Assembly: GCA_963770895.1 (NCBI GenBank)
Contig: CAVYRF010000002.1
Coordinates: forward strand, 4,032,001 to 4,096,000
Source: an uncultured Acidobacteriota bacterium
GTDB lineage: Bacteria > Acidobacteriota > Thermoanaerobaculia > Multivoradales > UBA5704
Length of the DNA: 64,000 bases
Reading direction: 5' to 3'
The translations under genes and the position numbers were made by a program. The notes under the pieces were generated by a model, which did no database searches, was not told where the DNA came from, and saw nothing but the letters and a program-made list of their open reading frames with translations. Of this stretch, positions 28,876-64,000 are shown in pieces. Numbering within the stretch: the stretch's first letter is position 1; the number at the start of each line of letters is the position of its first letter.

Positions 28876-31800
28876 ATGGCCGAGCGGAAGGACGTAATCT
28901 CAGGCGGGCGCGACCTCGGCCTCCAGGAGCCCGAGGCCGGCGCCGAGCAGGCAGGCGGAGTCTCTCCCAGCTCCCCCGCGGAGCGCGCTGCCGCGCTGCC
29001 GGCATGGCTGCGCCGCGAAACGGCGCGGGTGCTGGCGCTGGACCCCGAGGTGCTGGCGCCGGACCGGTCGCTGTTGGCCCACGGCCTGGATTCGCTGGCG
29101 GCGGCCGAGCTGGCGGCGGCGATCGAAGAGAACCTGGGGCTGGCGCTGTCGCCCGCCACCCTGCTGGAAGGCCCCACCCTAGCCGAGCTGGAGGAGGAGC
29201 TGCTGCGGCAGCTGGCGGCGAGCTCCGCCCAGGCGCCGCCGCGGCCGGCGGGCGAGGCCGGCGGCGGCCCGGCGCCGGCGACGCAGGCGAGCGCGGGGGC
29301 CGAGGACGCTCCGCCGCCGCCAGCGGCACCGGCGGCCGCGGCCGCGGCGCGGTACCCGCTGTCGTTCGGCCAGCGGGCGCTGTGGGTGGTCGACCGCATG
29401 GCCGCGGCGGGCAACCCGGCCTACATCATCTCGGGCGCGGCGCGCGTGCTGGGAGAGCTGGAGGGCGGCCGGCTGCACCTGGCGCTGCAGGCCCTGGTGC
29501 TGCGCCACGCGGCGCTGCGCACGCGCTTCGCGGTGGCGGACGGCGAGCCGTACCAGGAGGTCGGCGAGGAGCCGGCCTTCGAGTTCTGCGAAGAGGACGC
29601 CGGGGCGTGGAGCGACCAGGAGCTGCGCGCCCGCCTGGTCGAGGAAGCGCACCGCCCCTTCGACCTGACGCGCGGGACGCTGCTGCGCTTTGCCCTGTTC
29701 CACCGCGGCGGCGAGCACGCCGATCGCAGGGGGGGCGGCGGCGGCGATCCCGTGGTGCTGTTCGCGGTGCACCACATCGTCGCCGACTTCTGGTCGCTGG
29801 GAGTGATGCTGGACGACCTGGGCAAGCTCTACGGCGGCGTCGCGCCGCCGGCGCTGACCAGCTCGTACGGCGACGCGATCTGCGCCCAGGCGGCGCGCCT
29901 GGCGGGCGAGGACGGCCGGCGCCTGGAGTCGTTCTGGCGCCAGGCCCTGGCCGGCAGCCCGTCGGCGCTGGAGCTGCCGACCGACCGGCCGCGGCCGGCG
30001 CGCCAGACCTTCGCCGGCGGCGCGCGCAGCCTGTGGCAGGGGCGGGCGGCGACCGCGGGGCTGCGGGTGGTGGCGCAGGAGGGCGGTGCGACGGCCTTCA
30101 TGACGCTGCTGGCGGCGTACATGGTGCTGCTCCACCGCTACAGCGGCCAGGAGGAGGTGCTGGTCGGGACGCCGACGTCGGGTCGCACGGCGCCCGAGCT
30201 GGCGGGGCTGGTGGGCTACTTCGTCAACCCGGTGGTGCTGCGCGGCGACCTGACCGGCGGGCCGAGCTTCGCCCAGGTGCTGGCGCGCGTTCGCCAGCGC
30301 GCGCTGGCGGCGTTCGCCCACCAGGACTACCCCTTCGCGCTGCTCGCGGAGCGGCTCGAGGTCGAGCGGGACGCCAGCCGGTCGCCGGTGTTCCAGGCGA
30401 TGTTCGTGCTGTACCGCGAGCGCCGCCGCGAAGAGCGCGGCCTGGCCGGCTTTGCGCTGGGCGCCGGCGGCATGGTGCTGGACCTGGGGGCGCTGGCGAT
30501 GGAGTCGCTGGCGCTGCCGCGGCGCACGGCGCAGCTCGACCTCACCCTGCTGATGGCGGAGATCGAGGGCGTCCTGGCCAGCACGCTGCAGTTCAACAGC
30601 GATCTGCTGGACGCGGCGACGGCGGAGCGCATGCTGCGCCAGCTGCAGCACCTGCTGGCGGCGCTGGGTGGCGCGCACGCCCGCGGCCCTGGGCAGCTTG
30701 CGTGGCGCGAGCGGCCGGTCGGCGAGCTGCCGCTGCTGTCCCCCGCCGAGACCCACCAGCTGCTGGAGTGGAACGACGCGCCCCCCGCGGCGCCGGGGGC
30801 CTTCGGTCTGCCGGTGCCGGCGGTGCCGGCGGCGGCAGGGGCTGGGGCGCCGGCGGGCATCCACCAGCTGTTCGAGCGGCAGGCGGCGGCGCGGCCGCGC
30901 GACGTCGCGGTGGCCGGCCAGGGGGTGGCGCTCACCTATGGCGAGCTGGAGCGGCGGGCCAACCGCCTGGCGCGCTACCTGCGCGGGCTGGGAGTGGAAA
31001 ACGAAGTGCGGGTGGGGGTCTGCGTCGAGCGCACGCCGCAGATGGTGGTGGCTCTGCTGGCGATCCTCAAGGCGGGCGGCGCCTATGTGCCGCTCGATCC
31101 GGGCCATCCGGCGGAGCGCCTGGCGCTGGTCCTGGGCGACAGCGCGATGTCGGTGCTGGTCACCGAGGAAGCCTGGCTGCCGCGCCTTGAGTCGCTGGGG
31201 GCGCAGGGCGGAGCGGAGTCGGGAGCGGCGGGCGGCGGCCCCTTCATCGTCTGCCTCGACCGCGAGGCGGAGTGGATCGACGCCGAAGAGGACGCGCCGC
31301 TGGCCCTGGCGGTGGCGCCGCAGCAGCTGGCGTACCTGATCTACACCTCGGGGTCGACCGGCCGGCCCAAGGGGGTCGGCCTGCCGCACGGCGCGGTGGT
31401 CAACTTCCTGGCGACGATGGCCGAGCGCCCCGGCCTGGGCGCCGGCGACGTGCTGCCGGCGCTGACCACGCTGACCTTCGACATCGCCGGCCTGGAGATC
31501 TACCTGCCGCTGGCGGTGGGCGGCCGCGTCGAAGTCATCGGCCGCGACGAGGGCGCCGACGGCGCGCGCCTGGCGGCGCGGCTGCGCGCCGCGGGGGCGA
31601 CGGCGATGCAGGCGACGCCGGCCACGTGGCGGCTGCTGCTCGATTCCGGCTGGCAGGGGCAGGCGGGCCTCAAGGGGCTGTGCGGCGGCGAGGCGCTGCC
31701 CTGGGAGCTGGCGACGGCGCTCGTGGCGCGCGGCGTCGAGCTGTGGAACGTCTACGGCCCGACGGAGACCGCCATCTGGTCGGCGACGACGCGGGTGACC

Positions 31801-64000: not shown

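Follow-up and report, generated by a model that had tools for sequence, protein, structure and literature searches.

A 12-module non-ribosomal peptide synthetase from an uncultured acidobacterium, and a possible tie between one of its adenylation clades and a hydrazine-synthetase gene set

Among the described systems closest to the gene reported here are two very long non-ribosomal peptide synthetases (NRPSs), namely the selethramide synthetase SelB, encoded over 59.9 kb with 18 modules, and the kolossin synthetase, encoded over 49.1 kb with 15 modules, according to the available part of PMC10589681. Our subject is an NRPS gene, herein NRPS1, found in a 64,000-nucleotide stretch (the window) of an uncultured Acidobacteriota bacterium (GCA_963770895.1, contig CAVYRF010000002.1, i.e., G000:C2:4032001-4096000, where G000 is the 8.16-Mb source genome of three contigs and 71% GC and C2 is its 5.8-Mb contig), together with a second synthetase, NRPS2, and a putative hydrazine-synthetase gene set downstream. 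Like SelB and the kolossin synthetase, NRPS1 places a whole long assembly line in one contiguous gene with primary-metabolism genes on one side, and the SelB product is Ser-rich, as predicted for that of NRPS1. Unlike the two as set out in that source, NRPS1 is smaller, has 12 modules, belongs to Acidobacteriota, bears a fused N-terminal carrier and one module lacking an adenylation (A) domain, shows no detectable epimerisation (E)-type function, and adjoins a second NRPS and the hydrazine set. It is not a size record and, as an NRPS alone, is one more giant in a lineage where such genes are routine; its main interest lies in the tie of an unassigned adenylation code to an enzyme set that forms N-N bonds.

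Other described systems illuminate parts of the locus. In the daptomycin family, as the accessible portion of PMC9113097 describes it, lipopeptide initiation employs fatty acyl-AMP ligase (FAAL), acyl carrier protein (ACP) plus a specialised first condensation (C) domain. NRPS1 likewise has a carrier directly before its first C domain, and this domain would join residue 1 to an acyl group borne on a carrier; unlike the daptomycin-family arrangement, its carrier is fused, no FAAL lies nearby, and C1 is not specially CDA-C1-like. The cyclic lipopeptide synthetases of Pseudomonas and Burkholderia, as presented in the available part of PMC1894796, share with NRPS1 a starter C domain (a candidate one in NRPS1), co-linear modules of C, A and carrier (T) domains, a terminal thioesterase (TE), and residues of Ser/Leu/Gln type; they differ in having neither a fused T0 nor a hydrazine set. 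That source defines dual E/C domains by a second His motif near the N-terminus, HH[I/L]xxxxGD, which, unlike in those synthetases, is absent from all 12 NRPS1 C domains. Finally, the four enzyme types of the hydrazine set also occur together as Spb38-40 (s56-p1), Tri26-28 (triacsin), AzsL-N (azaserine) and PyrN. Here the cupin and the protein resembling methionyl-tRNA synthetase (MetRS) are separate proteins, unlike in PyrN, of which the PyrN-C half is the best solved relative. Unlike the known hydrazine pathways, as far as the accounts cited below cover them, the set here travels with a specific adenylation clade of multimodular synthetases.

A first-pass annotation, made from the letters of the window, had reported an uninterrupted giant NRPS frame of at least 11,700 codons, and this is confirmed. 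The plus-strand frame covers 28876..63999 (11,708 codons), begins with an ATG six bases after the preceding in-frame stop at 28870, is open at its 3' end and carries NRPS domains throughout. Past the window, it extends to 67110 in window-equivalent coordinates (C2 position minus 4,032,000), amounting to 12,744 aa (G000:C2:4060876-4099110); NRPS1 thus measures 38.2 kb as it stands and ~40.5 kb if a frame break near its end is read through. Since the window has a GC content of 73-79% (~76%) and the antisense strand also has an open frame of 9,075 codons, frame length alone is weak evidence for a gene in such DNA; that NRPS1 is a real gene follows instead from its domain content, its GC by codon position (0.81, 0.53 and 0.94 at positions 1, 2 and 3) and its regular domain order. 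Only four Pfam families are found in the three NRPS1 pieces, namely Condensation (11 stretches), AMP-binding (10), AMP-binding_C (9) and PP-binding (11). According to Pfam, to hidden Markov models (HMMs) built on its own domains and to motif reading alike, C, A and T domains recur along NRPS1 and bear HHxxxDG, the A-core motifs and the phosphopantetheine serine, which makes it a genuine type I modular NRPS of 12 modules.

The domain order obtained with these HMMs is T0-C1-A1-T1 ... C9-A9-T9-C10-(A remnant)-T10-C11-A11 inside the window, and the full layout consists of a T0-C start, ten C-A-T modules with one C-(A remnant)-T module lying among them, and then C-A-T-TE (Table 1). For the specificity codes, a MAFFT alignment was used in which the FDxS, GGE, NxYGPTE and GK motifs anchor the code positions, numbered as in GrsA. 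The alignment returns the same list that had been read by hand in the first pass, i.e., Gly, X, Gly, Gly, Ser, Gly, aliphatic, Ser, Ser, none, unknown. In the accessible part of PMC12283262, DVWHMSLVDK is printed as a Ser/dehydroalanine (Dha) signature and DILQLGMIWK as a Gly signature, alongside Thr signatures; the A1/A6-type codes (DILQLGxIWK) match that Gly type, and apart from these signature types the exact NRPS1 codes had no match in the literature in which they were looked up. All 12 C domains retain HHxxxD(G/F) and all T domains the carrier serine motif, while the A domains keep motifs A3 and A10 and nearly all keep A5-A8. The description of every T domain as GGHS type holds for T1-T12, which all read GGHSL, and fails for the previously unlisted T0, which reads GLDSL. 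As had been stated, the window is free of families and motifs for E, methyltransferase, heterocyclisation and TE domains; a terminal release domain (Thioesterase PF00975, 113 bits, GWSLGG) sits past the window end in a shifted frame. The A11-type code DAH(I/A)TTHVVK occurs five times in the genome, including A11 (C2:4095430), and in both NRPS1 and C2:5389727-5415292 the module bearing it directly precedes a terminal Gln/Glu module.

The second adenylation domain, A2, belongs to a clade of 13 A domains in the source genome, hereafter X type, that are 56-72% identical to A2, all other A domains reaching at most 54%. The clade has the code DVxxVGR(V/I)(S/A)K, with Gly-Arg at positions 301/322 and Ser at 331 in all 13, and this code had no match among published codes in the literature searched. 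The top match in a ranking of PDB entries is LgrA, with a score that sums two A domains; that ranking alone would suggest a glycine-derived substrate, and within the genome X-type domains are nearer to Ser-type than to Gly-type A domains.

Side by side ~30 kb downstream of NRPS1 lie four genes, for a cupin, a DAO-type FAD oxidase, a flavin N-hydroxylase and a MetRS-like protein, which fit the cupin/MetRS-like hydrazine-synthetase scheme given in the available parts of PMC11705231 and PMC13755311. The MetRS-like protein retains HVGH and KFSTS (HIGH/KMSKS-type motifs) and is distinct from the housekeeping MetRS, encoded at C2:5757108-5759150. Its best solved relatives are 9L8V/9VQ4 (E 4e-87), identified in the accessible part of 10.1101/2025.08.22.671884 as PyrN-C, the half of a hydrazine synthetase that acts as O-aminoacyl-hydroxylamine synthetase. 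As the two mapped arginines by which PyrN holds glutamate are changed here (R390 to G and R425 to H, the only positions mapped), the enzyme would use a smaller or different amino acid than glutamate. The cupin site for the metal and the catalytic Glu, H79-x-H81-x3-E85 ... H, aligns with the RHS1 ligands D63/H65/E69/H103, although RHS1 (5UQP) is a weak match overall (E 6e-7), and the cupin protein bears an extra MetRS-tail-like region. Split cupin plus MetRS-like systems are documented, namely RHS1, Afn8/9 and AsnHS, in the available parts of PMC11705231, PMC10445470, PMC8664883 and 10.1101/2025.08.22.671884. In five genus-mates, gene order is conserved for the N-hydroxylase, MetRS-like and FAD genes.

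Across 81 family genomes, G000 included, the MetRS-like paralog (E 1e-100 or better) is present in 35 and A2 matches (E 1e-130 or better) in 23, and the best match of all 22 foreign genomes was read for its code. Two of these (G012 and G046) have plain Ser codes; the other 20 foreign genomes and G000 are X type, giving 21 X-bearing genomes. The paralog occurs in 21/21 of these versus 14/60 of the others (Fisher p = 1.7e-10), and none of the 46 genomes lacking the paralog has X. This pattern recurs within genus g5, where X is present in 6/11 genomes with the paralog versus 0/19 without it (Fisher p = 7.8e-4), and in the source's own genus, g1, where the two members lacking the paralog (G002 and G009, both 94% complete) are also devoid of the cupin, the N-hydroxylase and X, the best A2 matches of G009 reading as Gln-like codes. 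In G040, G075 and G086, 3-20 kb separate the paralog from an X-bearing NRPS. In genus-mate G003, the MetRS-like, cupin and N-hydroxylase genes stand apart at three loci and each has its own X-bearing NRPS next to it, with the MetRS-like gene between two divergent NRPS genes that read Gly-X-Ser-Gly-... and Ser-Ser-Val-X; the G003 cupin is in two pieces with an internal stop. As X and the hydrazine genes are time and again present or missing together, and as these genes are dispersed in G003, the co-occurrence points to functional dependence, and there are about even odds that X is an alpha-hydrazino (N-amino) acid made by the hydrazine set. The literature searched, outside of which lay the supplementary homologue lists of 10.1101/2025.08.22.671884, yielded no account linking an NRPS adenylation clade to a hydrazine pathway.

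As to chain initiation, C1 falls into one group with 22 further C domains located at protein starts in the genome and has no special likeness to solved starter C domains, CDA-C1 included. Dozens of NRPS genes in this genome and in related ones likewise begin with T0-C, a start that is also seen at 36-45% identity in Pyrinomonadaceae, Chloroflexota and Nostocales. An acyl starter is thus likely, given that T0 precedes C1, that C1 groups with protein-start domains, and that this start recurs. The earlier designation of the product as a lipopeptide is backed only by the N-terminal carrier and first C domain; no acyl-activating gene adjoins NRPS1.

Module 10 is of a kind seen about ten times in the genome as C-T modules without an A domain. 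The T8, T9 and T10 domains are near-copies of each other, and in G003 an ordinary Ser module takes the place of the NRPS2 module that lacks an A domain, for which reasons residue 10 is probably Ser, loaded by a neighbouring Ser A domain. The syringomycin synthetase SyrE reportedly also ends in an A-less module, served by SyrB1/SyrC. SyrE and NRPS1 would thus share a C-T module without a working A domain in a co-linear line; unlike SyrE as reported, NRPS1 retains an A remnant in module 10, and the comparable NRPS2 module has its normal Ser form in G003. No free-standing A-T or shuttle protein for module 10 was seen.

On stereochemistry, NRPS1 has 12 C-type domains for 12 modules, a count that excludes E domains, and the E-type motif EGHGRE occurs nine times in the genome, with none of these in NRPS1. 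The HH[I/L]xxxxGD motif has zero matches in NRPS1, NRPS2 and all NRPS frames of the genome. Both E domains and dual E/C domains in NRPS1 are therefore ruled out on motif grounds. C5, chosen to stand for C4-C10, matches TycC6 at 226 bits and FscG at 206 bits, versus 55-70 bits for SrfA-C, TycB and a surfactin C domain; the first two are L-to-L (LCL) domains and the latter three D-to-L (DCL) domains. Genome C domains that sit after another C-like domain do not fall into one clade, and hence were unused as internal DCL references. The proposal of an all-L product is upheld on these sequence grounds only (no E domain, no dual E/C motif), with NRPS1 residues expected to be L or achiral; epimerising C domains of an unrecognised kind or free racemases may act on the product. 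Elsewhere in the genome, twelve C-like domains lie between a T and a further C domain (T-C-C-A), e.g., in C1:1029797-1060054 and C2:5389727-5415292; only one of these has EGHGRE, and they form no single clade.

The claim of a single giant gene stood as to one gene with the stated module order; it did not anticipate a frame break beyond the window, between C12 and A12. The last 150 codons of the 12,744-aa frame are Ala/Arg/Gly/Pro noise with no stop, while the true continuation, A12-T12-TE, lies in the +1 frame over 909 residues (AMP-binding, PP-binding, Thioesterase). At the junction, ...LELMS is followed one base on by AFERHQALLEW, the normal C-A linker of the other modules, such that the interruption reads as a one-base frame break and not as a gene boundary. 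A natural boundary at this point was considered and rejected, as there is no upstream stop for 150 codons and the linker homology jumps frame; one genuine C/A gene boundary does exist elsewhere in the genome (C1:1029752/1029797). Frame breaks also occur in other NRPS genes (C2:2132115, C2:2175731, C2:4499482 and C1:942065-946162), three of them in or within ~60 residues past the C-A linker and a few inside domains; either such sequence contexts are prone to error in this assembly or real mutations have recurred. The NRPS1 break would stem from a long-read indel error or else from a recent mutation; since similar breaks are found elsewhere in the assembly and the nearest relatives are long-read metagenome bins, a residual indel error in the GC-rich linker is a fair explanation. 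Among public sequencing runs (nine found, four compared), there were metagenome contig fragments with shares of at most 0.23, none cleanly bridging L001 4640-4650, and the runs listed included no RNA data. Apart from the break, NRPS1 looks functional.

The reading that we favour, at a probability of roughly 0.5, is that NRPS1 is a genuine 12-module synthetase making an acylated peptide, in which X is an acid from the hydrazine pathway loaded via a dedicated A clade. An acyl group on T0 would be joined to Gly by the first C domain, and the chain would be built as acyl-Gly-X-Gly-Gly-Ser-Gly-(aliphatic)-Ser-Ser-(residue 10, probably Ser)-Y-Gln/Glu, to be released by the TE through hydrolysis or ring closure. 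To supply X, the N-hydroxylase would make an N-hydroxy amine, the MetRS-like enzyme would esterify it with a small amino acid, the cupin would rearrange the ester to create the N-N bond, and the DAO-type oxidase would cut out the alpha-hydrazino acid. This acid would then be loaded as X by the DVxxVGR(V/I)(S/A)K clade, and the same building block would serve NRPS2 and about ten other synthetases of the genome. Whether the clade is a dedicated loader for an acyclic alpha-hydrazino acid from a split cupin/MetRS-like hydrazine synthetase is, in our estimate, an even bet.

Several observations weigh against this reading. Fourteen of the 35 paralog-bearing genomes have no X-type match at the threshold used, and 13 X modules, spread over two replicons, would be served by one gene set. 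The conserved Arg 322 suggests that the side chain is acidic or polar, and plain hydrazinoacetic acid has no such group. The related genomes are not independent, and physical linkage inflates the co-occurrence counts. The hydrazinoacetic-acid routes to triacsin and azaserine, as given in the available part of PMC10445470, employ succinylation, an AMP-ligase and a free carrier protein and load without NRPS A domains; no genes for such a route were seen at the NRPS1 locus. Moreover, no FAAL or other acyl-activating gene was found among the scanned neighbours of NRPS1, the rest of the genome not having been searched for one. Lastly, the break, if real, severs A12-T12-TE, and a toxin-antitoxin pair, an insertion sequence (IS) element and a truncated adenylation gene adjoin the break region. 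The imbalance between X modules and hydrazine genes, the X-less paralog-bearing genomes and the loading logic of the known routes, along with the fit of Arg 322 and the enlarged X-type pocket to a polar side chain, would also be accommodated if NRPS1 were as described with X being ordinary or otherwise made (e.g., an acidic or amide residue), the hydrazine set serving a separate molecule or a post-assembly modification, and the co-occurrence resulting from ancestry and linkage. We regard this as doubtful while granting it appreciable weight: the paralog is present in every X-bearing genome and X in none without it, the pattern holds within g5 and g1, and linkage in one island fails to explain the dispersed G003 genes, each beside its own X-bearing NRPS.

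The integrity of NRPS1 itself can be questioned in two ways. The gene might be decaying, with a real break, the last module and TE cut off, erosion by mobile elements, and either no dodecapeptide or only stalled and shunt products; the out-of-frame tail of 150 codons after the C12-A12 linker, the PIN toxin gene, IS630-type element and truncated adenylation gene directly downstream, and the reduction of module 10 to an A remnant would all accord with this. It is nonetheless improbable, as the other catalytic motifs are intact over 38 kb with third-position GC still at 0.94, the three comparable breaks at C-A linkers and the long-read origin of the relatives' bins fit indel errors, and the recurrence of A-less C-T modules across the genome looks like regular design. 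Alternatively, modules may have been collapsed, expanded or chimerically joined at repeats during assembly, to which the repetitive modules and the identical A8 and A9 codes would lend themselves. Such an artefact is very improbable. The closest internal repeat has only 95% identity over 300 nt (the A8/A9 near-duplicates) and most have 60-80%, which makes gross mis-assembly unlikely; in addition, the contig is 5.8 Mb long in a three-contig assembly, domain order is regular throughout, and frames of this class recur, with four others exceeding 10,000 aa in the genome and lengths of 12,595 to 18,228 aa in relatives.

Indeed, the genome is rich in NRPS genes. Our HMMs detect 278 C-type, 258 A and 280 T domains in 112 domain-bearing frames, the ~280 modules taking up roughly a tenth of the 8.16 Mb, and a separate scan yields 297 Condensation candidates. 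NRPS1 is the largest of five NRPS frames above 10,000 aa, and relatives have NRPS open frames of 18,228 aa (G020:C18), 13,601 aa (G035:C60) and 12,595 aa (G015:C3), as frame lengths from search tables; these equal or exceed the published largest contiguous NRPS genes. Among 251 A codes read in the genome, Ser is the commonest (41), followed by Thr (14) and Gly (12), and sister synthetases read Ser-Ser-Ser-Ser-Gly-X, Ser-Ser-Val-Ser-X-Ser and Gly-X-Ser-.... Given the giant frames of relatives and the genome-wide frequency of Ser and Gly codes, giant size and Gly/Ser richness are lineage traits that are not special to NRPS1. A surface, structural or surfactant role, which the first-pass annotation had drawn from the Gly/Ser chain, is not supported, nothing in the data bearing on it. 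Its statement that the predicted chain matches no product it recognised is supported in that no NRPS1 orthologue was found in the 30 relatives searched, where the best foreign matches are 60% for the first module and 69% for the last (genus-mates 59-69%), and the best matches overall are same-genome paralogues (first module 62%; last module 70% and 74%).

Table 1. Positions of the features discussed. Ranges with two dots are window positions; hyphenated ranges are window-equivalent except where a G003 contig is named; L001-L003 give the same features in locus coordinates.
Feature	Position	Locus position	Strand	Adenylation code and call	Basis
NUDIX hydrolase gene, divergent left neighbour, upstream cluster edge	28077..28799		-		domain scan
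NRPS1 open frame seen in window	28876..64000		+		open reading frame (ORF) listing
T0, N-terminal ACP-like carrier, serine motif GLDSL	29005..29196		+		PP-binding 61 bits
Module 1: N-terminal C (HHIVADF), A1, T1	29356..32730		+	A1 DILQLGVIWK, Gly type	HMMs, alignment
Module 2: C2, A2, T2	32842..36099		+	A2 DVINVGRVSK, X type	HMMs, alignment
Modules 3 and 4	36175..42729		+	A3 DILQLGLIWK, A4 DILQLGVVWK, both Gly type	HMMs, alignment
Module 5	42838..46164		+	A5 DVWHMSLVDK, Ser type	HMMs, alignment
Module 6	46252..49647		+	A6 DILQLGVIWK, Gly type	HMMs, alignment
Module 7	49747..53079		+	A7 DAMFVGGVLK, predicted, likely aliphatic	HMMs, alignment
Modules 8 and 9, A domains near-duplicates	53179..59922		+	A8 and A9 DVWHMSLVDK, both Ser type	HMMs, alignment
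Module 10, A-less: C10, degenerate A remnant, T10	60007..61956		+	none (no A domain)	HMMs
Degenerate A remnant in module 10, motifs A6-A8 only	61504..61683		+		motif reading
Module 11 start: C11 and first part of A11, crossing window end	62038..64000		+		HMMs
Module 11 whole, C11-A11-T11	62038-65196		+	A11 DAH(A/I)TTHVVK, no specificity call	HMMs
C12	65275-66651		+		HMMs
Frame break	~66640-66650	L001 4640-4650	+		C12-A12 linker
A12-T12-TE, beyond window	66638-69367	L001 4638-7367	+	A12 DAWQCGLIDK, presumably Gln/Glu-like	shifted frame
Small ORF and PIN-domain toxin gene	69447-70138	L001 7447-8138	+
IS630-type element, DDE_3 transposase, perfect 14-nt inverted ends	70134-71307	L001 8134-9307	+
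Truncated gene, A domain with luciferase-like monooxygenase (A-LLM)	71371-73857	L001 9371-11857	-
NRPS2, 7,472 aa, six modules	73886-96304		+
AraC regulator	96716-97159		+
Cupin protein	97167-98780	L002 17167-18780	+
DAO-type oxidase	98838-100199	L003 838-2199	+		DAO 139 bits, NCBIfam
N-monooxygenase (Lys/Orn type)	100250-101668	L003 2250-3668	+		Lys_Orn_oxgnase 364 bits, NCBIfam
MetRS-like protein	101681-103372	L003 3681-5372	+
FAD enzyme	103436-104863	L003 5436-6863	+
ADOP/MacB-type permease	104951-107392	L003 6951-9392	+		870 bits
G003 dispersed hydrazine-synthetase genes	C5:1814535; C3:1194920-1196737; C5:109340-110743

Around NRPS1, the earlier statement that the upstream side is devoid of tailoring, transport and regulatory genes proved right, with ordinary genes occurring there (NUDIX, YkuD, adenosine deaminase, cytidylyltransferase, Sua5, RecN-like and peptidases) and no biosynthetic genes found left of the NUDIX gene within the window. 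On the downstream side the gene is not isolated: NRPS2, the AraC regulator, the hydrazine set, a FAD enzyme and a permease, the latter suggesting export, are encoded there. The ADOP score of the permease, 870 bits, accords with an acidobacterial host. Four further ORFs (window 4578-6320, 9558-11624, 14666-16930 and 23477-25492) match no Pfam family at E 0.01 and are candidate genes only. The PIN gene pair and the IS630-type element are inserted between NRPS1 and NRPS2. In the A-LLM gene, a MupA/Atu3671-type luciferase-like monooxygenase (496 bits) splits the A domain, which has a degenerate A3 motif and stops after motif A7; the gene is likely the remnant of a third NRPS gene. The modules of NRPS2 read, in order, Ser, A-less, X, Thr, Ser with an embedded FkbM methyltransferase, and Asp-like, followed by a TE. 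The FkbM-type domain (67 bits) lies within the C-terminal part of NRPS2 A5 (L002:10404-11450), and its location in a Ser-type A domain suggests an O-methyl-serine residue. NRPS2 A1 (Ser type, window-equivalent ~76,800) has an Ala/Thr/Asp-rich repeat insertion of ~70 residues between motifs A4 and A5.

Backbone N-amino and hydrazide links alter the conformation and protease stability of peptides and are of interest to peptide chemists. If the proposed link between X-type domains and the hydrazine set is true, NRPS1, NRPS2 and ~ten sister synthetases would make long acylated peptides with a backbone N-N (hydrazide or N-amino) link, with counterparts in at least 20 related Thermoanaerobaculia-like genomes, constituting a product family, and a use of the hydrazine pathway, undescribed in the literature searched. 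The X-type code would thus become a new specificity code for genome mining, and the hydrazine set would represent a route for acyclic hydrazino acids into ribosome-independent peptides. Together, these would provide a first chemical handle on the NRPS repertoire of uncultured soil Acidobacteriota, which in this genome alone comes to ~280 modules.

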